Origin: Amphiscolops sp. MND2022
Taxonomy: Eukaryota
Direction of reading: 5' to 3'
Assembly (NCBI GenBank): GCA_964187785.1
Contig: OZ076409.1
Span: 76,758,001-76,818,000 of the forward strand
DNA: 60,000 bases
Position 1 is the first letter of the stretch. Every line of letters starts with the position of its first letter. Positions 792 to 36,985 of this stretch are shown here, one piece after another. Made by a program: the position numbers and the translations under genes. The notes under the pieces were generated by a model. The model was not told the DNA's origin and did no database searches. It saw nothing but the letters and a program-made list of their open reading frames with translations.

Positions 792-1192
792 TGTGATGCC
801 ATGATGCATGTCCTCAAAGACTCTATAAATTTGAAATACTCTGAACTCTTAACCAAACCAATTAGTAAATGTAATCTAATTTAGAAGCTAAGAAACTTCA
901 TTTAATAGATCCTGTATCAAGCTCCCCTGCTTCATCCTGTCGCTGTCACATTGTTAATTGATGTAACCTACCCTAGTTAATAGAATATATCTACTCGGAG
1001 AAATTGAGAATTCATCCTAGCAATCAGTCTTCCTCCCATACTTTAAGAACTGAGAACTCAGAAATAGATTGTACTCAGAACTAGCTAGCTACAAGATAAA
1101 AGATAAGACGACTTCGCTGTTAAAATCTTAGACTTCTTATGTCAGTACTAACACTTCTAAAAGAATCCACCACACAACTTTTTAACAGCTCA
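792..1192 (+). repeat. 5' LTR of element A
   Basis: TGTGATGCC...ACAGCTCA, 401 bp. I count 9 substitutions versus 18291-18691. Confidence 0.97.
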
Positions 1193-1194
1193 AT

Positions 1195-1208
1195 TGGTGC
1201 GACCATGA
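1195..1208 (+). promoter_or_regulatory. Primer binding site of element A
   Basis: TGGTGCGACCATGA begins 2 nt after the LTR end. Element B has TGGTGCGACTTG at the same position. The priming tRNA was not identified. Confidence 0.85.
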
Positions 1209-1339
1209 AAATTCTTTTTTCTCTCCCATTTATTTCACACATCTACAATTGTTGTACCTCTTTCCTCGACTTTCTCATACGCTATCTCTTTGTTCGACAC
1301 ACAGTTTCTCCACCTCTCAACATCGCCTATCGTTACTAA
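1205..1339 (+). CDS. Small leader ORF (44 aa) conserved between elements A and B
   Basis: SFLDFLIRYLFVRHTVSP aligns with DFLNFFNKYIIVRQTISP in ORF 37023-37343. Confidence 0.5.
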   Translation: MKILFSLPFISHIYNCCTSFLDFLIRYLFVRHTVSPPLNIAYRY

Positions 1340-1346
1340 CTTCAAC

Positions 1347-1620
1347 GTTGCAACCAATTTCTATTTGAAATTGGTCCGTGTTGCCATGGTTCTGACTGCG
1401 TTTCTCAACGTAATTCCTGTCAGTCATATTTCTTGGTTCTGACTACGTTTCTTGACGTAATTCCTGTCAGTAAATTTTTCGTTCCAACCACCACTGAGTG
1501 AATTCGTGTTGGCTTTTTCTCTTTCTTCCGTTCCAACCGCAGACGTGCGATACGTGTTGGCCCTTCTACAGTGCTATCCAGCGATACCTGCTAGTAGAAA
1601 TCTCTTTGGTTCTAGCCGCT
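1347..1620 (+). promoter_or_regulatory. Array of 6-7 bulged RNA hairpins in the 5' leader (putative packaging or protein-binding element)
   Basis: Repeated unit GTT-stem1-stem2-loop-stem2'-6-nt bulge-stem1', with different but complementary stems in each copy. Confidence 0.7.
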
Positions 1621-1875
1621 TGGATCAACTTTAAAGTTGGCACACATATTTAGCACATATTTTCTACATAACATTATTATAATACCTTTCTTATTCTCTC
1701 TTTTACAGTACAAACAGCATACAAAACTCTTTTAAAAACTAGTTTACGGATCCAAATACATAACAATTAAAATATATAACACATACCTCACATATTTCTT
1801 TATATAACTTTCATTTTTCATGACCGATATAAAACAAATTTTAATACAACCTCTTGGACACATTCTTCATTGTAC

Positions 1876-1998
1876 ATGCCGCCTTCAGTAGACACTATAG
1901 TTAAACTCATTGTCTGCTTTTGGTTCTTTGTTGCTATCATTGCTGGTCTTGCACTTTTTCTGGACAAATTTTTAATTTCATTCATACCAAAACTTTGA
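1876..1998 (+). CDS. Putative 40-aa single-pass membrane peptide
   Basis: Translates as MPPSVDTIVKLIVCFWFFVAIIAGLALFLDKFLISFIPKL. A polypyrimidine-CAG acceptor-like site precedes it at 1708. A positional counterpart lies at 38821-38934. Confidence 0.35.
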   Translation: MPPSVDTIVKLIVCFWFFVAIIAGLALFLDKFLISFIPKL

Positions 1999-2266
1999 AG
2001 CACAACCGTTTTCTTCTATGTTAACAAGTATAGTACTACCTCTTTTTGGACTACTTAGTATCTACCACACCTTCCATATACGTATTCAATATACACAAAA
2101 CCCATTCCTTCTTTTCATAAGTATTGTACTTACTATTTTCTTACAAGTGGTTTTCATAGATCAAATTTTACCATATAACTCACAATTCAATACAAAATAT
2201 CTTCTTTTCCGATACATCTATCCTTTATAGCAATCTTATTGTACTAATCAAACTTAATATCATATA

Positions 2267-5200
2267 ATGCTCCCCACTCCATTTACAGTCACTACTGACA
2301 AAAGACAAAATCGATCTCTTATACAAGATGTAACACCTTTTCTACAAAACATTATCTTTCAGTACACTAACCCACTTCCATTTGAAACAGAACCCCATAT
2401 ATTACATACTATTCCATTAGTACGAGAACATTGTGATTCTTATCTATATTATATACACTATAAAACACTTGACATTACACCATCACAAATCCCTTTTCAA
2501 GTTATTTTTAACCCTGTTAAAGGAATAAACTCTGGAACATTTTATAGAACTATACACCCAAAAAATATTACACTTTCTATACAAGATGTTTTTCACACAT
2601 ACATGCAAAAACTCATTGAATTCAATGAAAACCAAGACACACCACCTTATTGTCCTTCTCATTTACAAGAACTAAAACACAGATCTGAATATTTCGAGGT
2701 CCCAGATCTTGACACAAAAGTCCAACGACATGATAACCCTCATTATTGGTTACAACGAGATATCTTACAAATAAAACATTTTCAGTACAGATTCTTTACC
2801 AACATTATTCTTACAGATGACACTATACCTCAAGTCAAAATTTTTACACAATTCTTATTAAAGTTTCTTAGATTTAACTATCAACTAATATGGGAACAAA
2901 AAGATCAACAAGCCTATATTAACTTCCCTCAAATATTAACACATATAGAACTCTTACCATACATCATAAAAAATGAAAACAAACATTTACATTACCGAGA
3001 TCTTACTTCACTAAATGTTACACATTTTGAACAAATAACCTTAGATCACAACTTTGTACTTGAACATTCTGAAACATCAGACAAGAGACCTTTCACTACA
3101 CCTGATACTTCTCATGAAACAACTCCTGAAGAACAAACCTCTAGTGTTGAACCTTCATATACAAGACAACAATCAGACCAATCAGAACAAGAATCCCCAG
3201 AACAAGAAGCCCTTACTAATCGTTTTCAAAATCCTGATCTTCCTCAAGAACAACTATCATACCCACCATTATCACAAATCTCAGATATACAACAACCAAA
3301 TCCTTCTGAAACAAATACAATTCACAATACATCAGAACTTTCTGAAGAAACAGTACAAAATACACGAAGTTTTACAATAACCGATGATTCAAATCTTATA
3401 CTAGTTGCTACCCACAATATCACGCAAAATGAATTTACAAACCAAAATCAAGACAACACTTCAAATACAAATCCAGACAATACCTCTATTTTATCTACAT
3501 CTAATACTAACATTACACAACCCTCTCAGACACAAATAATATTTCCTCGAAATTACAATCCACCTTCTGTTCCACCCCAATTCTCAACTCAGATAAACAC
3601 CCATGACATTCCTCAACAAAGCTCATCAAATACACCCTACATTGCACAAAACAATAATATAGTTCATTTTCAAACACCAACTCCACCATTATCTTCTGAA
3701 ATACAAACTTCGAATTTTACTCCAGCTCAAACCAATTCGGTACATTATACACGAACTACCTTAAACATTAACACCATCCATTCTAACCCATCTACAGATT
3801 ATACCACTGCAAGACATCTTTCTCGACCTCCATTACAAACTATATTAACTAATCCATTATCATACAGTCTCACCAGTACTAATCCACGTCATACACAACA
3901 ATCTCAGATAAATTACAATACATCTCACCAATTAAATACTCTTTCTTCTCAACATACATCCAATACAATCACTCCTACATTACAAACTTCTCAATTTCAT
4001 ATACCAAATCCTCCTTCGACAACAATTAGAACTAACCCTCACTTTCATAGTACTTCAACTACTTCTTTACCTAATATTTCCAATAACCCCACATACAATA
4101 CAACACCTCCATCTACTATGTCTCATAACACTATGTCACACCCAACATATATTAATTCTTCTACTTCTATATCAGAACCCATTAAACCTTTTGATGGACT
4201 TGATCACAACTATACACCTGAAGAATATTTACAACATATTGAGGCACGTGTTACATTTTCCTTAGGTTTACAACCTACATCGGAACATGAATATAAATTT
4301 TGGCACGCCCGTCGCATGGCTTTTATACAATGCTCTCTAACAGGCACAGCACTAAGCTGGTACATCCGTTTAAACGACACTTATAAACATGATTGGCACG
4401 CTTTCGTACAAGCTTTCAAAAAACAATTTTCCTCACAAAAGAACGCTTACTATGCTCAAGTTGAAGCCCTTAATTTAACAAAGAAAGACAATGAAACAGT
4501 ACGTCATTTTGCACTCAAAGTTCAACAACTGGTTGAAAAAGGCTGGTGTAATGAGAATGCATCTACTATAAACCTTAAATGTAATGAAATCTTTACAAAA
4601 GGACTTCCAAAAAACCTTAAAGATTTTGCAAATAAAAGACAAGTAAAACACACCTCCACTGTCTTAGGACCTTCAATTCCTTTTCATACCTTGGTAAAAC
4701 TTGTTGACGCTGAAGATATTGCAAACGACAAAATCAGAACACACGATCTTGCACTTGAAATCAATAATATCACAAAACAATTGAACACTCAAACTCTAGA
4801 TCACCCATCTCAAGAACAACTTATGTATACACAACCCAAAGACCCAAATAACAAAAATAAACCTGCATATAAAAAATATTGCTCATACTGTCATAGAACA
4901 AATCACTTCATTTCTGCTTGTTTCAAAAAACAACGAGATGATGAAGATAAACGAGAAGCATATGCTCGATCAAAATCTCCACAAAAATCATTCGTTCAGT
5001 ACTTTCGTTCTCCTTCCAATGACAGAACAAAACACTATGATAATCGATACCGAAGTCGAAGTACTTCACGAGACAACTCTTATAACCAAAAATATTCACA
5101 AAACCGATACCGTTCTACATCTCGAGATAGAGACAGATTTCGTTATGACAAAAGTACTACTCCTCCACACTACTCCAGATCAAGATATGATACATACAAA

Positions 5201-5329
5201 CGTGATTCTCGATCTTACCGTTCTCCTTACAGATCTTCTTATAGATCCCCATATAGACAAAACTCTCGTCCTAGATACAGATCACGCTCCTATTCAAGAG
5301 ATAACAAATTCACCAAATACACAAATTGA
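2267..5329 (+). CDS. gag: Gag region of element A: unknown N-terminal domain, low-complexity linker, capsid, CCHC zinc knuckle, RS-rich tract
   Basis: Retrotransposon capsid-like IKPFDGLD...LTGTALSWY...W..FV..FKKQF; knuckle CSYCHRTNHFISAC. The TGA at 5327 is in frame with downstream pol and is probably a mutation. Confidence 0.9.
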   Translation: MLPTPFTVTTDKRQNRSLIQDVTPFLQNIIFQYTNPLPFETEPHILHTIPLVREHCDSYLYYIHYKTLDITPSQIPFQVIFNPVKGINSGTFYRTIHPKNITLSIQDVFHTYMQKLIEFNENQDTPPYCPSHLQELKHRSEYFEVPDLDTKVQRHDNPHYWLQRDILQIKHFQYRFFTNIILTDDTIPQVKIFTQFLLKFLRFNYQLIWEQKDQQAYINFPQILTHIELLPYIIKNENKHLHYRDLTSLNVTHFEQITLDHNFVLEHSETSDKRPFTTPDTSHETTPEEQTSSVEPSYTRQQSDQSEQESPEQEALTNRFQNPDLPQEQLSYPPLSQISDIQQPNPSETNTIHNTSELSEETVQNTRSFTITDDSNLILVATHNITQNEFTNQNQDNTSNTNPDNTSILSTSNTNITQPSQTQIIFPRNYNPPSVPPQFSTQINTHDIPQQSSSNTPYIAQNNNIVHFQTPTPPLSSEIQTSNFTPAQTNSVHYTRTTLNINTIHSNPSTDYTTARHLSRPPLQTILTNPLSYSLTSTNPRHTQQSQINYNTSHQLNTLSSQHTSNTITPTLQTSQFHIPNPPSTTIRTNPHFHSTSTTSLPNISNNPTYNTTPPSTMSHNTMSHPTYINSSTSISEPIKPFDGLDHNYTPEEYLQHIEARVTFSLGLQPTSEHEYKFWHARRMAFIQCSLTGTALSWYIRLNDTYKHDWHAFVQAFKKQFSSQKNAYYAQVEALNLTKKDNETVRHFALKVQQLVEKGWCNENASTINLKCNEIFTKGLPKNLKDFANKRQVKHTSTVLGPSIPFHTLVKLVDAEDIANDKIRTHDLALEINNITKQLNTQTLDHPSQEQLMYTQPKDPNNKNKPAYKKYCSYCHRTNHFISACFKKQRDDEDKREAYARSKSPQKSFVQYFRSPSNDRTKHYDNRYRSRSTSRDNSYNQKYSQNRYRSTSRDRDRFRYDKSTTPPHYSRSRYDTYKRDSRSYRSPYRSSYRSPYRQNSRPRYRSRSYSRDNKFTKYTN

Positions 5330-8300
5330 TATAGACCACCTTCAAGACCAAGAGATTCTAGATTTTCTAGATCTCGCCCACACTCAAATTCCAGAAATAA
5401 AATCAAAATGATACAACAACAAGACCAAACTGACCCTATCAAATTTGAAGTACACATGTATCACCCAACAGCAATGGCAAATGCTGTCACACCTACAAGT
5501 TGGTTTTATACTCTATATGTACACACCCCATCAAGTATAGTACAAAGAGACAACCCATCTAGATTAGAAATTGCATTCCTCCTAGATAGCGGTGCTTCCA
5601 TTTCTGTACTCAATTACCCAACATACATAACTCTTACAAAACTCCTAGATATTAGATCAAATCACACCTCTGATGTTGGACCAACTCGAAATTCCAAAAC
5701 ATTAACCATTGCAAACCAAACTGAAGTTCCTATTTTACACTACGCAAATATAATCTTGAACACCACTATTGATGAAAACTCTCGTTACTTTTCAGTACTC
5801 TTCGCAGTAGCTGATATCAAATACAACATCCTTGGCACACCATTCTTCGAAGACAATATACAAAACATAAACATACAAGACTTTACACTCGAATTTAAAC
5901 ACCAATCAAAAACACACCCAAATTATACAAAATTCACAACACTCCTATCTAAAGATTATCCATACTTCTCTTACATTTATAGAATTAACTCAAAAACTCA
6001 GATACGTCTAAAACCCAAATCTTCCAAAATTGCAAACTTTCCGATCAAAAATTATCATAACCTTCATTTTACAACCACACCACAAAACCACTTCTTTCCT
6101 TCAGTACCTCATACCTAATTTGCTACCAAATTCCGTACAAATTTCAATTTCATTGAAGTTTTTACAGACGACAAGCCAGATATATGTGCAACTATTATTC
6201 AGAACACTTCAAAACATATTGCAACCCTACCTATTGGACATATTGGATATATTGAAGTTCCAATTACTAATGAAAAACCTAAATTTTTCCAAGTTAACGA
6301 CATTAATACTTTAATACATAACGTTACCTATACTTATCATCCTGATATTACTGAACCACTTCCACAGACCAACTATATTGTACAATATGATGATCCTACA
6401 ACCCCTCCTCCTCAATTCTCTCTACATCAAATTTATATGACAAATAACGATATTCCAAATCAAACTTCTCCTTTATATAACGTTCAGCCTACTTCTCATA
6501 CTTCCGAAAAACGCATTTTCCCTTCTCTCCCATAAACTTCTGAAAATTTGAAATTTATTATTCAATTTAAGGTTTCAATTTGAAATTTGAAACCTCACAG
6601 ATTCAGAATACATTACTCTTTGCAATATGTTACTCAAATATAAAACATGTTATGCAACTCATAAAAACGATGTTGGAAAAATTTCAACACCCTTTCGTAT
6701 AAGACTTAAACCAAATGCTCAACTTATAACACAACGTCCTTCCAAAGTCCCTATTCACTACCGAGACAAACTTAACGTACTTCTCAAAGAACTCGGAAAA
6801 TATAACATTATCAAACAAATTGGTTCTTCTCCTCAAGACAAACCCGTTTATGGCACAACTTATTTAAATCCTCTTATTATAATCCCCAAGGAAGATACAA
6901 TAAAATGTGTATTAGACGCTCGACATCTTAACTCCAATACAGAACAATCTGATGAATCTTGGCCTATTGAACCTCTTGCTCCACAACTAGCACGCGCAAA
7001 TAAAAAGTACAAATCCGCTATTGACCTTATGTAAGCCTATGCACATACACCTCTTGACGAAGAAACTATAAAACTCACTAGTTTCTCCTCCGGAGACAAA
7101 CTTTTCGCATTTATCCGAGGCTTTTATGGTCTCAAAGCACTACCAAACTTCTTTACAAAACAAATGTCTACTTTCTTTAAAACTCTTATAGAACAAGGTT
7201 TCGCTCTTGTCTACATTGACGATATATTACTTTTATCTGATTCTAAAGAACACATGTTTCAACTCATAGAACAATTGCACATTATTAGTACAAAAAACAA
7301 TCTTAAACTAGCCCCTGAAAAATCCTTTTTCATGCTTCTTAAAGTCAAATTCCTTGGACATGAAATTGGTTACAATACAATTAAACCAATCCTTTCAAAA
7401 ACTGCAGCTATTCATAAGATCCCTTCTCCAACTGGCAAAGTTGCCCTAATGAGTTTCATTGGCGCACTCAATTTTTACACCAAATTTATTGAAAAACTAC
7501 ATATCAACCTCAAACCATTTTACGATCTTTTACATGAAAACACTCCTTGGAAATGGACAGACGAACACGAAAGTCTATTCCAAAAACTTAAAATGTCTCT
7601 CACTTCTGAAACAGAATTAACAATACCAAACACAAAACATCCATTTTTTATTACAGTTGACGCTTACCTTATCGGATTAGGCGCTGTCTTATTCCAATTA
7701 AATGAACAAAACAAAATGAAAGTCATATCATACAACTCTCGTATACTTAATCCACAAGAACAAAATTTCTCCACACTTGATAGAGAACTTCTTGGTATAA
7801 TACACGCACTTCAAATCTATGAATTTCTCATCATAGGTTCCCCCCATCCAATACACATTTTCACTGACCACAAACCTTTATTACATTGTTTTACAAAGAA
7901 AGGTAATCTCAGTCCTCGTTTCTATAGAGCTCAAATGCAACTGACAAAATTTTCAAAACTCAAAATAATTCACACGCCTGGAAAAAATCTCTCTGTTGCC
8001 GATATGTTGAGTCGCTCATTCACAAAAGCTGAAATACAACTAAACCAATTAAAACATAAACACCTCCCACCACAAATCGATTTTGCACTTTTACAAGATA
8101 ACACTCTTAAACCTGTACATTACTTAATAAAACATGAAGAAATTTTACCTCATCAAAAACATGACTCTCATCCAATTCTTGCTGGTTATGGTACAGATCA
8201 ATTCTCTATTCGTATCAATGATAAAGAAAATGACATTGTTGTCAAACCGTTACAATCCTTCTCATTCAAATCCATAACTCCTTTTCAAACTAAGTTCAAG

Positions 8301-10472
8301 ACACCTACCAAAAAGAACAACAAAACCCTTCATCAACCATCTCTCTTACTTAATGATACTGACGTTACAAGTGATGACGAAGATCATATTTACACCAGAA
8401 TTCCAAAATCTGACTCTTCCTTCTTACAAGACACAACATTACAAACAGAAAATTATTCTACTCTTAAGCAACCAACTCACAATACCTCACAAAAATCAGT
8501 TTCTGCAATAATTGTACAACCAAATTTACCATCTCTCACACACTGTCAACAAATCGTACCTTTTTATGATACATCAATTTTTAAGTACAAAAACTATTTT
8601 CAAGGTTTCTTCCTTCCCGATGATTACTCATTAGACATAAAAACTCTTCAACAACAACAATCTCAAGATCCGGTTCTTAGAACTGTTTATTCTTGGTTAC
8701 TAAATAATGAAAAACCCGAATTTGTAACACCTCTTATCACTGGTACTCCATTTCTACATGTATATTACAAAAGATTTTCACAACTTTTCATTGACGAATC
8801 CACAAATCTTATTAGTCTATATATTACAAACCCCACTGTTATTAACCAATCCTCTACTCCAAATTTTGTACAAGACACTATTCGTATATGCCTACCTTTC
8901 CGACTGTTTAAAACTGTCTTTAACAAACTCCATGAACACTCTCATACTGGTATGAAAATCACCTACAATACATTCAAACAATATTGCTATATCCCATTCC
9001 TTGAAAAATGGCTTTCCATTTTTATACATGATTGTATTGAATGTCAACGAAACAAACACTTTAATATGAAAATCCAAACTGCTCCCACACAATCTTTTTC
9101 AGAACATGCTCCATCTTTCAACTATCGAATTTCAATGGACACTAAAGGACCTATTAATCCTCCTTCTCGCAACAAATCCTATATACACGTGATAATTGAC
9201 GCTTTTAGTCACTTTGTTGTTACAGTACCCATCAAATCAAACAACGCAAAGACTGCTATCAAAACTCTCCTACACCATTGGATATTTAAATTTGGACCAC
9301 CCATATATCTTGTCACCGATCGTGGATCAGAATATGTTAATAAAGAAATGGCACACCTTTGCACACTTATGGGAATTCGTCATTCTCCTCGAACAGCTTA
9401 TTCTCCTTGGACAAACGGCCTTGTTGAAGTACAAAATAGAAATCTTGGTACCCATTTACGGATGTTCTTACATGACAAACCTAAAGATTGGGCATTCCAA
9501 GTCCATATGTACGCTTATGCACATAATTCACAACCACTTTCAGAACTCAACATTTCACCTCACGAAATTGTTTTCCACACTCGACCCAGAATACCCCTTA
9601 CATTTGATTTGAACCTTAACCGAGACACCTCTAAAACATGTATTTCACGATATTGCTCTCAACTTCCAGTACACTCCCATTATGATAAATCCGATTTAAA
9701 CCCATTTTTCTATAAAACACTTTCAAAACCCATTCCACATTGGTTTCTCGCTGTAGAAACTGCTATGTTACAAATTTATTCTACAGTACACGAAAACACT
9801 CTAAGAAAAATCAATTCACACGCATATATTACAAAAACTTACCATGAAGGTAAACCCCTTCCTATTGGTACCTTTGTTTTAAAACGCAATTTTACCCACG
9901 TTCACTTTTCTGACAAACTAAAACCCCTTCGGACTGGACCATATAAAATTCTTGACAGATTATCAGACGTCACATATGCACTACTTGCACAAGATGGCTC
10001 TACAGTACACGTCCACAGAAATCATTTAATTCCATATTATCCAAAAGAACCACTCTTATATCCACACCTGCGTAGTTTTATGCGCTTTTCAGACACAACT
10101 CAATTTCAAATTCCACAACCTACCAAATATGCAAACATTGATTCTTCTCCTTTTAACTCAGACGAATCGTTGTCAGAAGAAGATTCCCAAACATTTGTAA
10201 CACCATCATCATTTAGTACATCCAATCAGAATACACCATCTATAACATCCAATGACAATTCTTTGACCCCCTCAACCAATGACAACTCCTTATATAGACA
10301 TATAATTAATACCCCTCATACTATTATCTCTAGTGACAGATCAAGACACTCATCTAATAACCAAACCACTTCACTTCCTCCTCTAATTGACAGAACCACA
10401 AAAACTACCTATAAACTACGACAACAACCCAAATTAGATTATAGACTTTTCATTACACCTTCACAACTGTAA
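5330..10472 (+). pseudogene. pol: Pol of element A (aspartic protease, RT, RNase H, integrase), interrupted by stops at ~6116, ~6533, ~7032 and a frameshift at ~6560-6600
   Basis: PR FLLDSGAS; RT VLDARHLN and VYIDDILL; RH ITVDA.LIGLGAVL, RELL, FTDHKPL; IN HEHSHTG...CIEC, ISMD, VTDRG, NGLVE, and GPY module KLKPLRTGPYKI. Confidence 0.95.
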
Positions 10473-10558
10473 TCTAGTCATTCTATCTGTTGGCTCACTC
10501 AAAACTAGTCACTCCGGTTGAATGAAATATAACCCGTAACAAGTTATCTCAAAGATAA

Positions 10559-11796
10559 CCTGTTGAAAACACTTCAACAACCCTGGATCCTCCCTCTGAT
10601 ATATCTCCATCAGCTCCAAGTATTCCTTCCCCACCTGAATCTTCAGTATCTAGCACTACAAACTCTAGTAATGTAACTCCTACTACTCCTTCTAAAAGAC
10701 CAAGATCATACATCTCTGAAACTACCTCTTCCTCACTTCTTCACAGACCACCTATAACTGAAATTCCTATAAACACTCGTCCCCAACAAACTCCTATTAA
10801 CACTCCTATTATACACATACCAAACCCTGAAAGTGTTGAACAATACGTAACATACAAACATCCTACAGCTATCAAAACTGTTAGACTCCAACCTCAACTT
10901 AATCTTGTACAAATCCCTGATACTGAATATACAAAGCTACCTCCACTAAAATTACCTTCAGAACTTAGCACTACTCCTTCAAAACTTTATCCACCATTAA
11001 AACCTCTTCGAAAACCCTCTACATCACTCTCGAATCTCTTAGACAATAATACTTCAGACTACGCTCCATCACAAGACACAAGCTCACTTTTTGTACCTAA
11101 ACATAGATATAATCTTCGTGACCTTCACGTAGACTTAGTACAGACACTTCAACACTCAATTTTTCGACTCTTTCTAGCAATTCTGCATTACGACTTGTAC
11201 GACAACACGCTCAACCATTGTCCTCTGACACACCATCTTCAGAACTCTTTCAATCTCCTTGTTTTACTTCTGGTTTTGAAACCGCTTCAATACTCTCATC
11301 TAACCCACAGACTGCATTTCTATCAGAAGATCTCTTTCCACAAGTAGTAATCCCTACTCCTGTTCCTGCACATATTAGACTGCCCGAATACTATACTGCA
11401 GAACACTCTAGACCTCCAACTCCAAATTTTGCTGACTATCCACTTAGAGTCGATGGTATAACCATCTACGACCCACAAAACGATCCCCGATTTCCAATTC
11501 TTGCAGAACGTTTTATTAACAATAACGACCTCTTATCTCACAAACGCAAAGAAACAGAACTAAAACGCCTTCAGACATCAAATCTAGAACTTAAATTTGA
11601 AGTCAAAGTTATATTTCAAGGATTAAATCCACACACAATATTTCACGTTTCTAAGATAGAACATAAAACCTCTCCTGCTCCTTTCGAAGTAGTACATATT
11701 GAATTTGAACGCGATCTTAATATACCCACTATCACATATAGCAATATTGTCTTCTGTAACCCATATTCCGGTCTTAAATATACAACATCTTTTTAA
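10559..11796 (+). pseudogene. ORF-X: Pro/Ser/Thr-rich N-part with PSAP and LYPxL motifs plus conserved C-terminal domain (matrix/budding-like, unknown family); one frameshift near 11120
   Basis: An open frame from 10559 contains SPSAP (PSAP at 10607-10618), LYPPL (10985-10999) and RYNLR. The C-part (ORF 11218-11796) aligns with 47920-48444 (TSGFETAS, RFINN, LKFEV, NPYSGL.Y). Start codon not identified. Confidence 0.75.
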
Positions 11797-14446
11797 ACCC
11801 TATACAACCTTTTACATAACAACTCTAATTCTTTATTTACATTTATTTAACTCTACCTCTTCCATACCCATAACACCCTCTGACACTGACAACTATCTTC
11901 CATCGGATGACCCGAATATTACAAATCTCATGGTTTCTCATTATGACTGTGCAAAACAACACAATCTGAGACAATTTAATTTACTCAATGTAAAACAATG
12001 CACTGAAGCTCCTTCCGACATTAAACATGCAAGTGTTAAAGCCCGTGTATATGTCCGAGCAAAAGCTAAACGCATCAAAGCTTTTAAATGTGTTGCTTAT
12101 GCAAAAAAAGAAAGAAAAATATGCTTTCAAGGTTCCGTAAAACACCGTCGTGTTGATAGAACCGTATGGAATCATAATACATTACCGCTCCCTGTTACTC
12201 TTGATCCAGCAGAATGTAAAAACATTATACGACATTAAAATGGTACAAATAATAAAATACTGAATAACCTTCAATACAACAAAACCTTTACACTCTTAGA
12301 AGACCATTATTTTCAAGAACGTTTAGAACAATATCAAACTCCTTTCACTGTATATCAACTGAACAAAATGTATACAGGTACATTTACATTTATGCCTGCT
12401 GATAAAAACTGGATATATGACCCTACAAAAAACCCTTACCATAACTGTCCTGCTCATCATCAATTCGAAGTCAACTTAGTTAGTTGGCTACTAGAAGTTT
12501 CTGAAGTAGAACTTACATATGATGACACATCAAATGACATGATAATTGATGGACATACATTACCCTGCTATTTTGCAGATGGCTTCTGTAAACCCACTAC
12601 AAAAACTCCTTTTACTCTTGTTCGGTTTAATGATGATTATTGTCTAATTTTTACCCTACAAGACTTTATTGGACGTATGACTAAAATTGAAGATAGATAT
12701 TGGATTGAAACAGACTCTTTTGTACATTCTCCACATCCAATAAAATCTAAAACAGCTTCTGGCATAAAAGGTACAGAACACCCCTATGTTTATGCTCCTC
12801 ATACACAACACCCAAATAATCCAAGTCTTTCAAGGTTTGAAGTTTTCCCTACAGCACAAACCTTCTGTGGTAAACCAGACCCTCTTTATTCTACACAATA
12901 ATCAGACCTTTTTGTTACATACACTGATGGTTTCAATATGCATACAGGACAACCTAATCCTCATTCCATAATTGATGAATATATTTCTGGTAAAATAGTA
13001 TTGGACACTTCAAATAACAAATTTGTATTTCCTGCATTAAATGTATCAAACAATTTTGCTACCATTGATTATGATGCACATGTAAACACCAAAATCGATT
13101 ATACTATTAATCATGTCTTCCGATCAATGACAGTACAAGAACTAAATACTCTTCATACAATATGTGAACTAGAACGAAATCAACTCCTTACAATACTCGC
13201 AATGTCAGTACAAAACCCTCAACTTGCTGGTTTCCTTTTAACTGGTAATAGAAGTAACTTCTTATACGTTGAAGGCTCAACCGCCTGGCTTTATGACTGT
13301 CCTCATTTTTTATCTCCTTTATACAAAGCAGATAGATGCTTTGACCGTATACCCATACATTTTAAAGAAACCTTAATGTACGTTGATCCTATTACAAGAC
13401 AAACTTATGATTATGCTACACCAATTACATGCGATAATAATCCACGTAACATTATTGAACTAGATCTTGATTCAGACGATCAAGACTTTTACATTCTTGG
13501 ACCTGAACCTATCAAACGCAAACCTCCACTAATGTTTACACCCTCACAAATCAAAACTACAATACGCCCTAATACTTTTACAGCCCAAGATGCTGGTATA
13601 TATTCAAATGCAGAACTTGATCAATTTTGGAACCGTATTTTATTTTCTAAACATTCTGATTCTACACTCCAATTACTAGGCAAAGCTCTTAGTTATTCCT
13701 TCATTTCATCTAATACTCCAAATTACGATGCAGATTCCCCTCAAGATTCTGGTAATCCTTACAATACATTACGCATAGGACTCCATGATAAACTCTTGAA
13801 TTTAACTCCTCTTTTTACACCTACATGGTTTTCAGATGCTTTTATTGCACTTTTTGGATACCCTTGTTACATTCTCACACAATGTGGTATATACTTTTCT
13901 ACATTTCTTTTCGTACAAGCTACTCTTACACTCATTAAAAAACTGTACAAAACAATATCTATTAAATATAATCTCAAAAATAATATTACTTTACTTAGTT
14001 CTATAGCACATGGTTTTTTTAATGTTCTTACAGCACGAATGGTCAGTGACCTCCATGAGACTCAAAACAAAAAACCCAAAAGTACACTTTTAAAATCCAA
14101 ATCCTTAGATAATTTTATTGACACTTCTCCAAATTTAATTAACCATTCTACCGATGTTACTTCCCCTCCACCTTTCTATACTAAACGACCTAACAAAATT
14201 CAATTTCCTAAATTTAACTTCTTTCCGAAACGACACCACAATTCTCACCATAAAACGACTCCACTTCCTTTCTCTCCTGTTCAACATCCTACACTTCCTA
14301 ATTATACTCATAAAAACTTTCACTCGAATGACAATCTAACTACTCAACATGACACTTTAATTAACAATCCTGTCACTTCTACTACGGATACACCAATTAA
14401 AATTTATTCGCGGATAAACTATCCTTTTCCTCCTCCATCTTCTTGA
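11792..14446 (+). pseudogene. env: Envelope glycoprotein, class III fusion-protein-like (chuvirus G / herpes gB type), two premature stops
   Basis: ORFs 11699, 12368 and 12938 share one frame. Signal-like hydrophobic stretch, HYDC...NLLNVKQC, CELER.QL..ILAM...NP.LAG, CFDRIPI...YVDPITR...C, N-glycosylation sequons, C-terminal TM (ILTQCGIYFSTFLFVQATLTLI), long tail. Confidence 0.85.
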
Positions 14447-14705
14447 ACACTCTCTCAGTTTTTCTGTAACTCTCTTTCAGTACACTTGCCTACTATTTCT
14501 TCACAATTGCTACTCCTCCACCACTCGAAACTCTTGCAGAAGTTCATCTTCCTCAGCCCAATAATACTTTAATAATAACCGTCTTTAAAAACTCTCAACT
14601 AAAGTTGACAAATCCACTCGTTAGTGTAATTTATAGTACTTTAACTTTAAAGTGCTAAGGCCTCTTGGAATAGATAACACTGTGATTGTTGATGTTTTTA
14701 AAACA

Positions 14706-16033
14706 ATGACACAAGCACAAATTGACCTACAAACACAGCTTGAACAAGCAACCCCAACAGAACTAATAACTAGACCTCTTTCAAATGATTCTCCTGTTCT
14801 CTATATTGAGACTTCAGAACAAACACCTCCAACTTTTCTTGAACCAATGGAACACACAAAAGTTGAAAATGAAAATCCAAAACCTACTCCTTCACAAGAT
14901 GATACTGATCATACACAATCGACACCACCTCCTCCCAAAAAACGATATGAAATAATGAAAGATCCAATCTTTCTTTCATCACCAATATATCCTCCTTCAA
15001 TACCTTCAAAAATTTCACTTTGCACGAATCGCGATGATCATTTGATCTCAATTCTTTCTACTGACGATTTCGTCTTCAAAGCACAACTAACTTCTCTATA
15101 TATGCATCCTACTGACTATTCATTTCGCTTATATGACAAAAATCAAGACTTCTTCACATCCATTGCTTCCAAAATAATGGGTCCATACCAATATTGGCTC
15201 GAGAATGGAGTTAAAATTTTCTCTCTCCAATTCAATTTTCTTCGACCTTCTATATACGATCTCAAAACAGATGAATCTGATCCATCCTTTCTCTCTATAG
15301 CACAAAAAGCTACTCATCATCAGACATATACTAAATTCCTGCAATACACGAAACCACAAAATCATATTTTTGTCAATTACAAATATACATCACCGTTCAC
15401 AATGACAAATATGTACACTCTGGACCACTCCTGTATAACAGGCTACCTTCGGAACTATGACCCTATAAAACAATACTTCTGTTTACTCCCATATAACAAT
15501 ACTTCACGTCCACCTATTGTACCTCAAGAATATCTCATACATTACAATGATTTTTTGTTGCCCTGCAACATTCCTACTCAAATTGCAAAACCTCTTACTG
15601 TTATTAAACACCTCGTTTCTTCTCCACTTGACGATAAAGATAGAACGTACTATACAGTTTCTACAAGCAAACGTATTCATACAATGAATTCCTCTTTATC
15701 TCTGCCAAAACTATCTCTTTCATGGTACAAGCTGAACAAAAAACTGAACATAAATCACACGCTTCACCTATAAAAAACGCTCCTCACAAACTTTCTTCTG
15801 TATTAAACAACCGAACACTTCGCGACATAACAAATTTACTTGAACCCTATAAACGAAACTCCTCTTAAACACCTATCACAACACTCACACCTATACTACA
15901 CTGCTACGACAGAACACACAAACTCCTTCAGACACTCGATTTAGACTCTCAACGCATCACTCAATCATCCCAAGCAATCCAATCTGCTTTGGAAACTATA
16001 ACTACTCTTTTTAACTCAACTAATCTTCATTAA
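14706..16033 (+). pseudogene. ORF4: conserved accessory protein of unknown function (frameshift ~15670, stop ~15866)
   Basis: Aligns with 51038-52310 (LTS.YM.PT.Y.F, TSIASK, LRNYDP.KQ.F, RP.IVPQEYLI, YSY.E..FIS). Confidence 0.75.
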
Positions 16034-16451
16034 AATCTTCTACAGGTAATATAAAGTTCTTAATTTTTCTTCTATGGTACACCCTATGATACATCTGTGA
16101 CACATCCTTCAAGGTATTTTCATTTTTACCTACTTATTTAAGGTAAATTCTTGCTTTTGAATAAAATCTCAGGACTATTTTTCAAGTACACTAATTTTTC
16201 CTACAGTACATGTCGTAAAATTAACTATTTCTATTAAAAACACTACAATACAAGACATACAAGACAATATAGCACAACACTACATATGATACATTAAAGC
16301 ACCCAATTTTGTTGTACATCTTTGACTTGATATTGTCATTCTTCTTACACTTCCTTTGTTTTAGAAACATCCATTCTTCTTCCTCCTCCTTCCATTCTCT
16401 TTCAGAACATCTCCACTTCTCCTTTTTCGTCTTCTACAGGACTCTCTCGTC

Positions 16452-16904
16452 ATGGCCCCCAACGCTGAAATACAAGATATAATTACAATGATTTCCAGCC
16501 ACTCAAAAGTTGATAGCCTAAAAGCAGCTATTTTTCACACAATGGCCTACAAACTTTCCCTGGAAATAAACAACAATAAAATAACGCCAAAATCTCTTAT
16601 CGCCTTTCTGAAAGTCTTATATAATGTCACCCAAATCAAAAAGAAACACATTACATTTGAACAATATTCAAGGATTCATGTCGCCGGACCAAAAATTGCC
16701 ATTCGTGAAACGGCTTCTAATGTCGTTTTTGTGTTAAACTCGGCGTTCACGTCTAAAGACCAATACTTTCAAGCTGCCTTCCACGAAGCCACCAACGCAT
16801 TCAACGAGATGCTTCATAGTTTTGGATATACCCAGAAACTCGAACACTATGATCCTCACCAACATCAGGCACATCCACCTCAACAACATCCTCTATACAA
16901 CTAA
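16452..16904 (+). CDS. ORF5: 150-aa accessory protein of unknown function
   Basis: Intact ATG ORF in good context (GTCATGG) directly after a polypyrimidine tract plus CAG (16437-16439). Weak similarity ITFEQYSRIH to INFDQYLKLH at ~53030 in element B. Confidence 0.55.
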   Translation: MAPNAEIQDIITMISSHSKVDSLKAAIFHTMAYKLSLEINNNKITPKSLIAFLKVLYNVTQIKKKHITFEQYSRIHVAGPKIAIRETASNVVFVLNSAFTSKDQYFQAAFHEATNAFNEMLHSFGYTQKLEHYDPHQHQAHPPQQHPLYN

Positions 16905-17110
16905 AACAATATTCTACTTACTTTATCACTCTTCAACTCCATCTCTTCTTGAATCCGTCATTCTTCCTCAATGATGTTTGAGATGTAGCTGTCGCTCACT
17001 CCTTCAAAGAACTCCTACACATGCTGAAACTCTTCAATTCACCCATTCACGATGGTCAACAACATACATCTCCATTTTGGGTTCATCGACGTTGCCAAAC
17101 TTTGTCCTCG

Positions 17111-17225
17111 TCACTGGTCTTCACACTCCACGATGACTTCTTGACTGGTCTTCACACTTCAAATGCTGACTTCTTGACTGGTCTTCACACTTCAACTGCT
17201 GACTTCTTGACTGGTCTTCATACTC
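17111..17225 (+). repeat. 33-bp tandem repeat (~3.5 copies) in the 3' region of element A
   Basis: GACTTCTTGACTGGTCTTCACACTTCAACTGCT repeated. Confidence 0.9.
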
Positions 17226-18290
17226 CAATGGCCAATACAAATTTCAAACTGAACTGTATAATCAAATTTAACAAATATACCTTGTAACTCCTTGTAACCT
17301 ATCAAATTCTAACTTCCATATAGTATAGTGCTATATACTCTTATCTAATCTTTAGTGCTATATACTCTTATTTAATCTTAATCTCCTCTAATCGTAGTAT
17401 AATTACCCCTCCATTAAAAATAATCCTTCCCAAATTCTACCTATAATTATCCTTGTAACCACAATAGTATCTACTTCCATTGTATTGTGTATAGTACATT
17501 GACATTATCTTACCTAATTATAAACTCCAAAAATAAATCTCTAATCCCCATCTTTTACAGAACACAAGTCCTACCTACAGTACAAGAAATTTTCTAAGAT
17601 TTTTGAACAAAAATTTTTCTTTAACAAAACATGTTCTACACTTTTGTTTTAATCCCCAAAAGCATTCCCAAACAATTTTCCAAATTTTTCTTTAAAACTC
17701 TTAACAACTGTCACTTCTAGTTTTCCAATGTTTGAAACTTGAAATAGCCAAAGTTTTTTTCAACTCTTGCTTCTGCTCTACTATTCACTTTTGTTGAAAA
17801 TGAACTCTCACTCGAACCTTGACTTTTCGAAACTTCTTCACTTTTGGTTCACATACCCGCCAATGTTGGTTCACAACTCATTGACAACTTCACGCTTTAA
17901 TTCTTCAACTTGAAAAGTTTTCAATGCTGACTAACTCATGTTGATGAAGAATTTTTTCAAACAAGCCGATGGCTGATACGAAAAAGAAACATGAAATGAT
18001 AAATAGTTGTCAACAATAACTTCAAAGAACTTGTCAGTCAAAGAAACTGAAAGAACTTGAACCTTGCTTGAACCTTTTTGCACCAATTGAATCGTCTATG
18101 ACGTAATGACGTAAGAAGTCAAATCGTTTTAGGTTGTTCTCACTCCTTAAGTATGGTACTCTACAAAACAAAACTCATGCAACTCTAGTACAACACAAAT
18201 GAAACAAACCCATGCATATAACAAAAACTTCTAGAACTCCTCGAACCCAAACTGCATATATGTAATTTAATTTTTAAATTCCCGGTTGAT

Positions 18291-18691
18291 TGTGATGCCA
18301 TGATGCATGTCCTCAAAGATTCTATAAATTTGAAATACTCTGAACTCCTAACCAAACCAATTAGTAAATGTAATCTAATTTAGAATCTAAGAAACTTCAT
18401 TTAATAGATCCTGTATCAAGCTCCCCTGCTTCATCCTGTTGCTGTCACATTGTTAATTGATGTAATCTACCCTAGTTAATAGAATATATCTACTCGGAGA
18501 AATTGAGAATTCATCCTAGCAACCAGTCTTCCTCCCATACTTCAAGAACTGAGATCTCAGAAATAGATTGTACTCAGAACTAGCTAGCTACAAGATAAAA
18601 GATAAGACGACTTCGCTGTTAAAATCTTAGACTTCTTATGTCAGTACTAACACTTCTAAAAGAAACCACCACACAACTTTTTAACAGCTCA
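18291..18691 (+). repeat. 3' LTR of element A
   Basis: Direct repeat of 792-1192, followed by TSD TTCA. Confidence 0.97.
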
Positions 18692-19869
18692 TTCATCCTA
18701 TGCAATTTCAACCTATGCAATTTCAACCTAGGCAATTTCAACCGTTGCCATTTCAACTGCTCACAATTTCAACCTATTGCATTTTCAACCGTCCGCCAAT
18801 TCGACCTAAACTAATTTTGGCTAATGGATATTAATTAGTTGATAATTGTTTTAATGGTTTCAACTTTCATACATTTCTACTTTCAAAGGTGCTGATTATT
18901 ACGCCAGTTTTGATGTGTTTTGGCTTCTTCATGAATAATTACCAACAATTAAGGCTGTTTGATTCATTAGTAATTATTATACTGAAATAATAGCTCAACC
19001 GAATTAAAACTAAATAGCCGAAATTAGTTTAGGTCGAAATTGAGGACGGCTGAAAATTCAATAGGTTGAAATTGTGAGCGGTTGAAATCGCAACGGTTGA
19101 AATTGCATAGGTTGAAAGCGTATTGGACGAAATGTCATGTAACCTCAGAAACAAATATTTTCCACAGTATATACTGATTAACAAAAACCTTGAGCAAGAG
19201 AAACGCAGCGCAAAACGTCGGAGTCTTCATTATGTTCGGGAAAATTTCACTACCGAGACTCGTAATATTGGATGTCTGAACTAAAAATAAGCTTTTAGAA
19301 AAAATCAATGTCAAAATGGAAGAATGCTTTCAACGAGTTGAGAGATGGATTAAGTCATCGTGTATTGAAAGATTTCATACCGCAAAAGTTTCATTCATAT
19401 AGTTTTTATCCATTTTTCTATACAGGATAAAGCATACCAAAAACTTTGCTGTGCGAAAGTGCCGCAACTTCAAAGCTGTAACTTTGAAAGAACGAAACTT
19501 TCGCACTGCAAAATATTTTTACTCTGTGAATTTTCCAATTTCTCCTGAACGAACTCGCTGGTAATTTCCCGCAGAAATGAATCCCCTCCGGACAATTGGG
19601 AGGCAAAGAAACTTACATTCCGCCATTTTGCCACCACCTGTTGAAATATATCGATGATTCCGTCCTCACGCATTCTCGGGTTTTTTGCTCACGAGAAATC
19701 AAAAAAGTAAAAGATAATATACCCCATGTTTGTATTATGAATTTTCATGAAAATATGTCTGGTTGAAGTCGTTCAACATAATTTTTAATGAGCTCCACAG
19801 ATGCTTTAGTTAGGCTAGCCAAACTGTTTTAGTTTCGCACACCTTGATACAGGAGTCCCTTGGAATTGC

Positions 19870-20489
19870 ATTTTTAGTCGGCGCATTTTCCTTTAAGAAA
19901 AAAAGCCCGACTATTACAGTGGCTAGTTTTTTTTTCTTTTTTTTTCGTCAGACCACAGAGCTCATCGCGTATGTACCACTTTTTACAGAAACTGATAAGT
20001 TCACTCAGGCCAAGTTCGACCAAAGCAAACTTACTGCAAAGGGTCCCCCCTTTCGTTTTTTACCTTTTTTACGTAACCTACAAAACCGGAAGACTCCCTT
20101 TCAATTTTTTTCGGCACTGTGCGAATTTTTTTTCGAAAATTTTTAATTTTTCCAAAGAATCCCCCCTTCGGATTTTTTGATATTTTGCAACAGAAAGTAT
20201 GTTAATGAATCCCAAAGGGTCCCCCCTTTTCATTTTTCGGCACTATGCGACGTTTTCGTAGTTTTTTTCAAAAAAAATTTTCCAAAAATTTTTCAAAAAA
20301 TTTTCAAAGTTTTTTTGTTTCCAGTCGGGAAAAGTGATTTTCCAGTCATATCGAGCATGAAAGGCACACTTTGGGTGTCTCGAAAGTGTTTTCAAAGCTT
20401 TTCATGAATACATCCTGGGCATATTTAGAAAACTTTGAGCTTTTTGAGCCTTAGATATAGCGCCGACTTTAGACGTTCCCGTCTTGTTT
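19870..20489 (-). repeat. Second, inverted copy of the 121-607 repeat family
   Basis: The reverse complement of the right end reads AAACAAGACGGGAACGTCTAAAGTCGGCGCTATATCTAAGGCTCAAAAA. It shares the AAGGGGGGACCCTT internal motifs and AGTCGGCGC at the other end. Confidence 0.65.
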
Positions 20490-20490
20490 A

Positions 20491-20560
20491 GTATGGTGTA
20501 GTAGTTAGAGCATACGGCTCGCACTGGGATGGTATCAGGTTCGATTCTCTCTCAACTCAC
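20491..20560 (+). repeat. tRNA-derived (SINE-like) head
   Basis: A-box-like TGGTGTAGTAG and B-box GGTTCGATTC (20538-20547); no complete cloverleaf. Confidence 0.45.
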
Positions 20561-20965
20561 TATTGTTGGGCTTTAAGCAAGTCCTTCATTCATAGCCCAG
20601 TTGTGTATGGTCAATGACAAAAAATAACGCATGGCGGAGAAAAGCAAAAGAAAAAGAGCAACGGTGATCAGTCAGACCTTTGTGACGTTGAGCTAGTTCA
20701 AGTCATCCATTGCTTGACCATTTATTTGGCTGCAAATATGGAACCATAGTATTCGAATGGGCGCCGATTTAGAAAAGCAGCACTGCTTATTCGTTGTCCA
20801 CCCAACGGAATTGGACAAATTAACTTCTCTTTTTCCCTCTTTGAGCTTTGAGATGATTTTTGAATTATATTGCACCATTATGTTACCCCGCTATCCACGA
20901 TATCGATTACATACCTCAGAAAACACAGTTCTAACTACAACTTGACTTCTACAAACTGTTAAAAC

Positions 20966-21427
20966 GATTACCAGAAAACTCAATACAAGAAAACTCAACA
21001 CAAGAAAACTCAACACAGAAAACTCAACACAAGAAAACTCAACACAGAAAACTCAACACAAGAAAACTCAACACAGAAAACTCAACACAAGAAAACTCAA
21101 CACACGAAAACTCAACACAGAAAACGCAACACATTTTAAGCATTTAATAGTCGGGATATATCTTTCACATGTAAATTCCTTGTTCTTACTGCTCCTATTT
21201 TATGCATTTGACACAATCTTTAGAGGTAAAGGAAATTATACGGCTTTATATGTGTTTGAAATGACTCGCAATTGTCACGAAGTGTAAACAGAAATTAGAC
21301 GGGTTTAACAATTAGTTAGATTTCGGAAATTAAACTCAAATGAGGTGTTAACTAAAATTTAATAAATGTGTTCAAATGTGTTGAGTTTTCTCTGTCAAGT
21401 TTCCTTGTGTCGAATTTTCCGTACCCC
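20966..21427. mobile_element. Foldback/MITE-type element with tandem-repeat TIRs
   Basis: (AGAAAACTCAACACA)n at 20972-21133 mirrored by TGTGTTGAGTTTTC-type units at 21377-21427; flanking direct repeat GTTAAAAC (20958-20965, 21428-21435). Confidence 0.75.
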
Positions 21428-22221
21428 GTTAAAACGCTGGTCTCATGTAATAGAGTATCAAATACAATAGTGTAAGAAAAGAACTGAACCCTTATTTGTA
21501 AAAAATGATTTGGACTGCGTGTAAACAAAGCTAGCATTTTACATGGTGATTTTTTTAAGCTTTTTTACACACGAATTTAAGGGACTGGAAAAACAAATCG
21601 AATGTTTAAGATGATGGGTACAATCGTCTCAATCAGCAGATTCTCCTGATTTTGATTTTTTTCAGTGAAAAATGTAACACCGAAAACATAATCCCCAATC
21701 ATTGCAAAAAATAGCTGTGTCTCACGTATCGTATGAAGATAGTAAAAAAAATGAAATAATAGAAAACCCCTTTCAAAAGCTACATAACACCAATCATCTT
21801 GATGTAAAAGATTTGAATGGCTTCAGTAAATGAAGAAGTACCTGCCAAATAAACAAAAGTTCCAAATTAGGTGCCAAATGTTACAAAATTGTGCAAAATG
21901 ATGTCCCATATGCCAATTCAGTAGTAAATACGATTAATGAAAATTGAAGTTAGAAAGTTTCTTCAATAATAGCAAACCTACATTTCAAGTGCCCAAGAAA
22001 ATTTTAAAATGTTTGTTTATTTGAATGTCAAACAACTTGGATGATAGTTGAAATCAGAGCTGGTTTTGTTTTAGTCCAATTCTTTTTTTACAAATAAATG
22101 TTCAGTTTATTTCTTACACTATTGTACTTTCCGAGCCTCAGTTAGGTAGGGCAATGCTGAAGGTATTTTTATGTCACCGCTAAATAGAGTTCACAAAGAA
22201 AGCCACTGAAAGAAGATTGTT

Positions 22222-32919: not shown

Positions 32920-32990
32920 TTAAAATAGCGCAGTTGGTAGTGCGCGTGCCTGCTAGGCAAGAGGTCATGGGTTCGAACCCAGCCTGAAGC
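32920..32990 (+). repeat. tRNA-derived sequence (SINE head or tRNA pseudogene) inserted in the old gypsy element
   Basis: A-box TAGCGCAGTTGG, B-box GGTTCGAACCC, anticodon-like arm CCTGCTAGG; the acceptor stem does not pair. Confidence 0.6.
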
Positions 32991-36982: not shown

Positions 36983-36985
36983 ATT

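Follow-up and report, generated by a model that had tools for sequence, protein, structure and literature searches.

An envelope-carrying Ty3/gypsy clade of about 18 kb with accessory genes and a putatively CUG-started ORF-X before env in Amphiscolops

The step from retrotransposon to enveloped virus is usually told as the gain of an env gene; a captured class III fusogen also needs a link between its capsid and budding. How errantiviruses with a glycoprotein B (gB)-type envelope couple this protein to capsid budding is left open in the available discussion of a recent survey (Chary and Hayashi 2026; PMC13524379). The same question is raised by two long terminal repeat (LTR) elements, A and B, in a 60,000-nucleotide stretch of Amphiscolops sp. 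MND2022 (GCA_964187785.1, contig OZ076409.1, positions 76,758,001 to 76,818,000; hereafter the window). Both contain, in the same order, small leader open reading frames (ORFs), gag-pol, ORF-X, env, ORF4 and ORF5. The best explanation, with a probability of roughly 0.55, is a recently mobile Ty3/gypsy clade of about 18 kb that carries an envelope and accessory genes, in which a CUG-started ORF-X is coupled to env and acts as a matrix-like adaptor. The clade would offer a concrete, testable answer, namely a separate late-domain protein tied in translation to env.

The elements and their family in the genome

Elements A and B are LTR-type insertions. An earlier note on this DNA had described two full-length elements with unrelated LTRs, and both points hold: each has an LTR pair with TG...CA ends, a 4-bp target duplication (TTCA in A, GCTG in B) and a common primer site, and blastn gives no match between the A and B LTRs. 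The two LTRs of A agree at 392 of 401 positions (98%) and those of B at 268 of 279 (96%). The interiors are collinear, with about 70% identity overall, 67-82% in longer blocks and one 32-bp block at 97%. Strongly negative GC skew marks both elements and ends at their borders. Both window copies are defective. In element A, gag-pol, ORF-X, env and ORF4 are interrupted by stops or frameshifts, and the start codon of env is gone. Element B is broken at many places and lacks about 170 bp of the reverse transcriptase (RT), 450 bp of env and 330 bp close to the 3' end.

Further genomic copies, which the earlier note had asked for, provide the intact frames. Searching the animal's own genome (1.07 Gb) with the LTRs and proteins returned many dispersed copies, and 39 of them, from lineages termed A, A', C, B, B' and D, were examined; they were picked from the top matches and are biased to young copies. 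Apart from a few rearranged or partial ones, all share one layout of small leader ORFs, a single gag-pol frame, ORF-X, env, ORF4 and ORF5, with LTRs of 237-419 bp and RT regions 72-94% identical between lineages. In this biased sample the LTRs of nine copies are 100% identical, and the clade has therefore moved very recently. It is abundant in its own genome: of 20 evenly spaced stretches of 10 kb, one lay inside the clade, a sample too small to fix its share of the genome, and initial searches gave thousands of candidates, which are not copy numbers. A mitochondrial COX1 in the assembly is read with NCBI table 5, with AGR, ATA and AAA at Ser, Met and Lys positions; should its contig belong to the host, this animal would be an invertebrate outside the cnidarians, sponges, echinoderms, rhabditophoran flatworms and tunicates.

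Outside this genome, relatives are harder to place. Among the matches listed (120 of 277; 120 of 418; 10 of 246 checked), relatives of ORF4 and ORF-X came from ENA only and are probably for the most part from the same host or its close kin. The distant ORF-X homologue P0304 had no match in G000 at E<=1e-40 in the one query made, a hint that other hosts carry ORF-X. Two peptide patterns each found no env relatives in JGI metagenome or IMG/VR contigs, and a search among longer proteins, a length class ill suited to env, gave none either.

The gag-pol gene forms a single frame of about 2,600-2,730 codons in other genomic copies. It encodes an N-terminal domain of about 275 aa, a low-complexity linker, a capsid (PF03732), a CCHC knuckle, an RS-rich stretch, protease, RT, RNase H and integrase. 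PF03732, RVT_1, RT_RNaseH, Integrase_H2C2 and rve score above the Pfam cut-off in gypsy order, and SH3 falls under it; the protease (DSGA) and the CCHC knuckle are called by motif alone, and the RT motif is YIDD. By sequence, the best PDB match of the RT is Ty3 (1e-37), followed by the 8r0s enzymatic polyprotein (6e-28), foamy virus (9e-19) and weaker ones. Pfam order, LTRs, target duplication and primer site support the Ty3/gypsy type named earlier. One RNase H is found by Pfam, followed by about 320 aa up to integrase. Retroviridae have a connection domain and a second RNase H; in the errantiviruses of PMC13524379, divided into clades that include A1-A11 for placement, the RNase H is followed by a "mini" domain in the ancient group and by a pseudo-RNase H in the insect group. 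The N-terminal Gag domain is 38-66% identical between lineages and has no match in Pfam or the Atlas. With the C-terminal domain of ORF-X and the core of ORF4, it brings the protein domains without a known family to at least three.

Downstream, env matches the Monjiviricetes fusion glycoprotein profile PF24664, which we take to represent a class III fusion protein, at 79-93 bits against a cut-off of 27 in three lineages. The protein has a hydrophobic N-terminus and conserved cysteines, its tail carries PPxY in four of four lineages, and its sequence has no PDB match.

Purifying selection acts on ORF-X, ORF4, ORF5 and some small membrane ORFs. Ratios of nonsynonymous to synonymous substitution (dN/dS) were computed by the Nei-Gojobori method on natural open frames, with one copy per lineage. 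The values for ORF-X are 0.17 (A'/C), 0.22 (within B') and 0.10 (D/D'), and those for ORF4 are 0.15, 0.20 and 0.07 in the same pairs; ORF5 gives 0.15 (within B') and 0.22 (D/D'), with dS saturated in A/A' and A'/C. For env the ratio is 0.06-0.13 and for RT 0.04, and an overlapping non-coding frame used as an out-of-frame control reaches 1.31. Judged by the 0.07-0.22 of the closer pairs, ORF-X, ORF4 and ORF5 are genes under purifying selection, and the value near 1 that had been named beforehand as speaking against their function was not seen.

ORF-X, its proposed start codon and its probable link to env

Of what is new in the family, the signal for CUG initiation and leaky scanning has the best support. 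Methionine is absent from the 407-490 codons of ORF-X in all three lineages counted, and from ORF-X of lineage D as well; every other ORF has 3-29. The string A-nn-CTG-G stands at the ORF-X start in 39 of 39 copies, protein similarity begins at its Leu-Asp (CTG GAT, A at -3), and CTG makes up only 1.2-2.6% of the Leu codons of these elements. From this CUG to the env AUG there are 2 AUGs in A', 3 in C, 1 in B' and 0 in D, against 7.9, 11.5, 7.6 and 7.4 expected from a dinucleotide Markov model (P<=0.01); a stricter codon shuffle gives P values of 0.054, 0.016, 0.0015 and <0.0005. Four of five D copies have an AUG-free stretch of 1.57-1.67 kb, and the two internal AUGs of A open upstream ORFs (uORFs) of one and two codons. 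The low-complexity linker of gag holds 7-22 AUGs per kilobase or so. Taken together, the absence of Met, the fixed A-nn-CTG-G and the AUG depletion suggest CUG initiation with leaky scanning to env, and ORF-X is quite probably translated from a subgenomic X-env RNA by starting at this conserved codon, whose Kozak context is good. The family makes a clear case for comparative work on CUG initiation in an LTR element that avoids AUG on the kilobase scale.

The predicted protein combines a motif-rich N-terminal part with a globular end. Ser, Thr and Pro make up 43-46% of its first 270 residues, among which some islands are conserved. Both LYPxL and YNLR lie at aligned places in four of four lineages and recur in the distant homologues P0253, P0298 and P0303; PSAP is present in three of four. 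Around YNLR, element A reads HRYNLR and B HSYNLR. Known late motifs are P(S/T)AP for TSG101, YPx(1-3)L for ALIX and PPxY for NEDD4, according to the available text of PMC2958808 and PMC6874086; none of them is conserved across lineages in Gag. The dedicated budding protein proposed in the earlier note is in this respect plausible, with LYPxL, PSAP and the env-tail PPxY on its side; the case consists of short motifs, and a foamy-like chromatin motif is present too.

Structure prediction, likewise proposed there, succeeded in part. The C-terminal domain of ORF-X (about 125 aa, 126 residues modelled) is predicted confidently, with a predicted local distance difference test score (pLDDT) of 85 and a predicted template modelling score of 0.67, and the ORF4 model is poor. 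The domain has no Foldseek match at E<=0.001 (best structural Z 2.9, root-mean-square deviation 2.4, 37 residues aligned), and no structural similarity of its model to the matrix proteins rhabdovirus M, VP40 or bornavirus M was found. ORF-X has no Pfam family, and the Atlas returned nothing of use. A two-copy prediction of the domain scores 0.34 against 0.02 for the best control, with contact agreement of at least 55%, pLDDT of at least 48 and one paired strand; the mark of 0.32 is reached by 21 of 30 solved pairs and by 0 of 23 single chains. What is predicted here, a globular domain that dimerises and a tail with late motifs, in a gene placed just before a class III env and coupled to it in translation, fits the picture expected of a matrix or budding adaptor; the odds of that role against a chromatin tether or another function are about even.

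In the proposed mechanism, a subgenomic X-env RNA would carry ORF-X and then env. Ribosomes passing the weak CUG would scan about 1.2-1.4 kb of nearly AUG-free sequence and start env, which would couple the two proteins. ORF-X would then have an even chance of being a matrix-like adaptor whose disordered part recruits the endosomal sorting machinery ESCRT, LYPxL through ALIX and PSAP through TSG101, with the PPxY of the env tail assisting, and whose C-terminal domain dimerises. It would supply the late-domain function missing from Gag, and capsids would bud with a coat of env; the YNLR of ORF-X may in addition anchor cores on nucleosomes. ORF4 and ORF5 might come from spliced RNAs and could, at a guess from their position, be regulators or anti-silencing factors. 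The likely use of the whole is soma-to-germline or cell-to-cell spread within the host.

Several observations weigh against this explanation. Shuffled sequences contain any one of the motifs in 2-7% of cases for ORF-X and in 5-15% for the env tail, and conservation rather than presence is therefore the evidence; the lineages that carry the motifs share ancestry and are not independent, and PSAP is missing from ORF-X of D. The homodimer pass is marginal, with one of three runs at 0.19 and an uncertain partner fold. ORF-X has no hydrophobic stretch or membrane anchor, and the membrane segment of env is moderately hydrophobic, below 1.6 in C and D. Within ORF-X of C and B', uORFs of 11-17 codons are kept. 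No conserved acceptor or promoter for an X-env RNA was found upstream of the CUG in the lineages compared. The most distant pair, A'/B', has higher ratios (ORF-X 0.41, ORF4 0.30), and dS is close to saturation in several lineage pairs. The elements are known here from DNA and predicted proteins, and budding, particles and infectivity are deduced from these.

Among the rival explanations, one accepts the CUG start and takes ORF-X mainly for a chromatin tether or nuclear regulator that acts through YNLR on the H2A-H2B acidic patch, its late motifs being incidental. YNLR, present in all four lineages and the three distant homologues, matches the core of the foamy-virus Gag peptide GGYNLRPR, which binds the nucleosome acidic patch according to the available text of PMC12125541. 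Pol of A' and D finishes with a similar YxLR, and the lack of a membrane anchor fits a nuclear role. Since LYPxL is conserved as well as YNLR, and translational coupling to env and the PPxY of the env tail fit an envelope-linked role better, this explanation is rather unlikely. Another rival concerns the start itself: ORF-X could be a second exon spliced to Gag or a leader ORF, or could be reached by frameshift or readthrough from pol. Such a route would also account for the missing Met, and donor- and acceptor-like signals exist around ORF4 and ORF5. It is nevertheless improbable, as it does not explain the AUG depletion in three frames or the fixed A-nn-CTG-G. There is no conserved AG ahead of the conserved part of ORF-X; C, B' and D lack the candidate acceptor AAG/ATAA of A and B, which was dropped; and in A an in-frame stop lies just upstream of ORF-X, whose frame differs from that of pol.

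The elements might also copy themselves within the cell, with no budded particles, and retain env and the accessory genes to fuse cells or to counter host silencing. In favour of this, the small membrane ORFs lie upstream of gag much as does sORF2 of the sORF1-sORF2 pair in Drosophila MDG1/412 elements, which share such small ORFs and lack env in the available account of PMC11952523. The small ORFs here are shorter (37-79 aa against about 110 aa for sORF2) and none begins with MG, and selection on the env ectodomain nearly equals that on RT and integrase (0.06 against 0.04-0.05), which makes purely intracellular copying the least probable of the rivals. A CUG-started, matrix-like ORF-X coupled to env thus remains the preferred explanation.

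Relation to known elements and viruses

The layout resembles that of a complex enveloped retrovirus, but the element is of Ty3/gypsy type. Env-carrying Ty3/gypsy elements, gB-type included, are widespread in animals and were described as "ancient errantiviruses" with an HSV/gB-type envelope (HSV, herpes simplex virus) in the available text of PMC13524379. The present elements share with them the Ty3/gypsy pol, the LTRs, a class III-type env after pol and young multi-copy families in invertebrates. Under the operational definition of that paper, a Ty3/gypsy pol with an F-type or HSV/gB-type env, they would be classed as errantiviruses by their PF24664 match and cysteines. They differ in that the published elements are described as gag-pol-env, with no accessory ORFs mentioned in the main text as available. 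The prefilters given there accept regions of <=10 kb and, for most non-insects, a pol-env gap of <=1 kb; a gag-pol of 8.2 kb followed by a 1.3-kb gap would tend to fail them, and this is an element type that size-filtered surveys would miss. The available tables of the paper hold no rows for Xenacoelomorpha, Chaetognatha or Gastrotricha, and its element table does not contain the primer-site string GTCGCACCA.

Giant gypsy elements are also known, namely Burro/GYPSM1 of planarians and plant Ogre (PMC6431247). Burro, like the present clade, is giant and gypsy-type, with extra coding capacity and an env-like region; as far as that source describes it, it encodes one polyprotein of about 4,900 aa with env in frame between gag and pol, whereas env here is separate and follows pol and ORF-X. 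The size of Ogre is largely LTR, in contrast to the short LTRs and four separate ORFs after pol found here. Foamy viruses and foamy-like endogenous retroviruses of fish (up to 17 kb) share the size, the accessory ORFs between env and the 3' LTR and a YNLR-type motif (PMC6431247, PMC12125541, in their accessible parts). Their differences lie in the RT, which here is nearer Ty3 (E 1e-37 against 9e-19), the class III env, the fused Gag-Pol and the placing of YNLR and late motifs on a separate protein. LTR elements of bdelloid rotifers also have accessory ORFs; in the available text of PMC5408684 their ORF3s are recognisable enzymes or a paramyxovirus-type env.

The class I env of the Retroviridae, cleaved by furin into surface and transmembrane subunits, differs from the present one, which matches a class III profile and has no furin-type R-x-[KR]-R in any of four lineages. 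Rhabdoviruses and bornaviruses have an M-G gene pair, in which a late-domain protein is encoded directly before a class III glycoprotein. ORF-X likewise precedes a class III env; this is an analogy only, as no similarity of its domain to a matrix protein was found. A bolder interpretation, which we hold only tentatively, sees an independently evolved, complex enveloped retrovirus-like Ty3/gypsy lineage, in which budding and chromatin-tether motifs would have moved from Gag to a CUG-started matrix-like protein of unrecognised fold. This protein, made together with the class III fusogen through leaky scanning, would form with it an M-G-like module as in negative-strand viruses, accompanied by spliced regulators and small membrane proteins.

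The novelty suggested in the earlier note stands for the architecture, which is apparently undescribed so far, and falls for its parts, as env-carrying gypsy elements outside insects (PMC13524379) and giant gypsy elements (PMC6431247) are each on record in the available texts. This gene set was found in no paper searched, in a search that reached neither Repbase, GyDB, subscription papers nor bioRxiv supplements.

Accessory ORFs, signals and surroundings

ORF4 is 32-70% identical across lineages and has no Pfam family. Its model (pLDDT 38.6) contains a small SH3/KOW/PWWP-like barrel and a C-terminal helix, of which only the barrel is moderately modelled; the structural match of the barrel (Z 5.8) is generic. 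The ORF5 slot is filled by one protein in A, A' and C, by another with at most a short shared motif in B and B', and by a third in D, none with a Pfam family; A and B ORF5 compare at E=0.11, with a best segment of 23-29 aa at E~1e-3. What is kept of ORF5 is its position and not its sequence, which suggests a replaceable slot. What had been called an identical gene order with at least five conserved modules is accordingly kept as an order, a layout and a pattern of selection; ORF5 is not convincingly homologous between A and B nor one conserved module across lineages, and the "leader ORF" is a lineage-dependent set of small ORFs. The ORF5 of D (L070 7392-8285, about 300 aa) is rich in Ser, Thr and Pro and carries a cluster of Cys and His close to its end; it has no Pfam match and a dN/dS of 0.22.

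The small membrane ORFs of the leader have dN/dS values of 0.02-0.18 in D/D', and sTM2 gives 0.11 in B/B'. In A'/C, sTM1 (0.53) and sTM3 (0.42) have wide intervals and show selection weakly or not at all, and uORF0 has 0.21 in A'/C and 0.89 in B/B', where no selection is seen. The donor-like G/GTAA past ORF4 and acceptor-like tracts before the ORF5 AUG in A and D suggest that spliced subgenomic RNAs may be made. The leaders have no strict donor, one in B' excepted. The one sequencing run listed aligned as contigs, one of which extends into flanking DNA, and showed no splice junctions; it carries no information on transcripts.

Two candidate genes were rejected: an ORF6 after ORF5 (17021-17287), not kept in C, B' and D, and a 200-codon alternative frame over the RS region of gag, with a dN/dS of 1.31. 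The coordinates of the features are collected in Table 1.

Table 1. Positions of the two elements and their features in the window
Feature	Positions	Strand	Remarks
Element A	792-18691	+	LTR pair, TG...CA ends, target duplication
A 5' LTR	792-1192	+	401 bp, TG...CA; TTCA target duplication at 788-791 / 18692-18695
A uORF0	1139-1339	+	66 aa, spans U5 and primer-binding site; ends VR[HQ]T[VI]SP, common with B-type lineages
A primer-binding-site core TGGTGCGAC	1195-1203	+	common to all lineages
A sTM1	1876-1998	+	40 aa, one-pass membrane; homologues in A', C, D
A sTM3	2018-2230	+	70 aa, small membrane ORF; 78-79 aa in A', C, D
A gag-pol	2267-10472	+	broken here; one frame in other copies, ~2,730 codons; C-terminal YxLR
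A ORF-X	10583-11796	+	~410 aa; proposed CUG start 10583 (ACC CTG G); frameshift near 11122
A env	11738-14446	+	~900 aa, PF24664; start codon lost, two stops
A ORF4	14706-16033	+	~445 aa, soluble; frameshift near 15770
Donor-like G/GTAA	16045-16051	+	just past ORF4 stop; 33 of 37 copies examined
A ORF5	16452-16904	+	150 aa, open; acceptor-like pyrimidine tract and CAG upstream
A 3' LTR	18291-18691	+	
Element B	36705-54308	+	LTR pair, TG...CA ends, target duplication
B 5' LTR	36705-36982	+	278 bp; target duplication GCTG
B primer-site core TGGTGCGAC	36986-36994	+	
B uORF0	37023-37343	+	106 aa here; 59-60 aa in other copies
B sTM2	38821-38934	+	37 aa, small membrane ORF; homologue in D
B gag-pol	38936-46870	+	heavily broken; RT deletion near 43728
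B ORF-X	47103-48444	+	proposed CUG start 47103 (ATA CTG G); one frameshift; 1,163-nt AUG-free stretch
B env	48447-50563	+	PF24664 E 3e-14; ~450-bp deletion near 48550
B ORF4	51038-52310	+	homologue of A ORF4 (~40% identity); broken
B ORF5	52833-53308	+	~158 aa, broken; no significant similarity to A ORF5
B 3' LTR	54030-54308	+	279 bp

Several smaller observations concern the elements themselves. A priming tRNA was sought for TGGTGCGAC and none was assigned; in A' and C the primer site (compare window 1195-1208) resembles the complement of a tRNA-Arg end given in supplement 1 of PMC13524379, as available, with two extra bases after TGG. No canonical polypurine tract precedes the 3' LTR (18271-18290, 54010-54029), and these positions hold a conserved T-run, A-run and CCGG motif in lineages A, B, C and D. 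A 28-nt motif (GGAATAGAT..CACTGTGA.TGTTGATG) between env and ORF4 (14667-14694, 50842-50869) differs very little between A, A', B and B', whose overall identity is about 70%, was not found in C or D, and is a possible cis signal. In Pol, about 300 aa between protease and RT (5750-6550) are conserved without a Pfam match, with a dN/dS of 0.12 for the wider region in A'/C; this spacer presumably resembles a degenerate dUTPase-like linker. In both elements a long RS/RY-rich stretch follows the Gag zinc knuckle (5000-5400, 41700-42100) and is likely an RNA-binding region.

Rfam has no match anywhere in the window. Element A is inserted in a common repeat, possibly a non-autonomous DNA transposon, whose flanking parts (116-608, 19867-20793) are mutually inverted and matched 6-7 of 20 unrelated genome stretches. 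Directly 3' of the A 3' LTR lies a palindromic element of about 450 bp (18692-19138), similar to a miniature inverted-repeat transposable element, with 137-nt arms of 15-bp units. Further on come a 15/29-bp tandem array, a copy in inverted orientation close by, and two inverted repeats of 57 nt (20944-21147, 21377-21422, 21460-22129). Between the two elements, about 6.5 kb (28500-35000) show strong negative AT skew and are flanked by 222-bp direct repeats that are 72% alike (28073-28294, 33931-34144); this may be what decay has left of an old minus-strand element. One random genome stretch (L084) carries a distant pol of another LTR lineage, with 25% identity over 503 aa.

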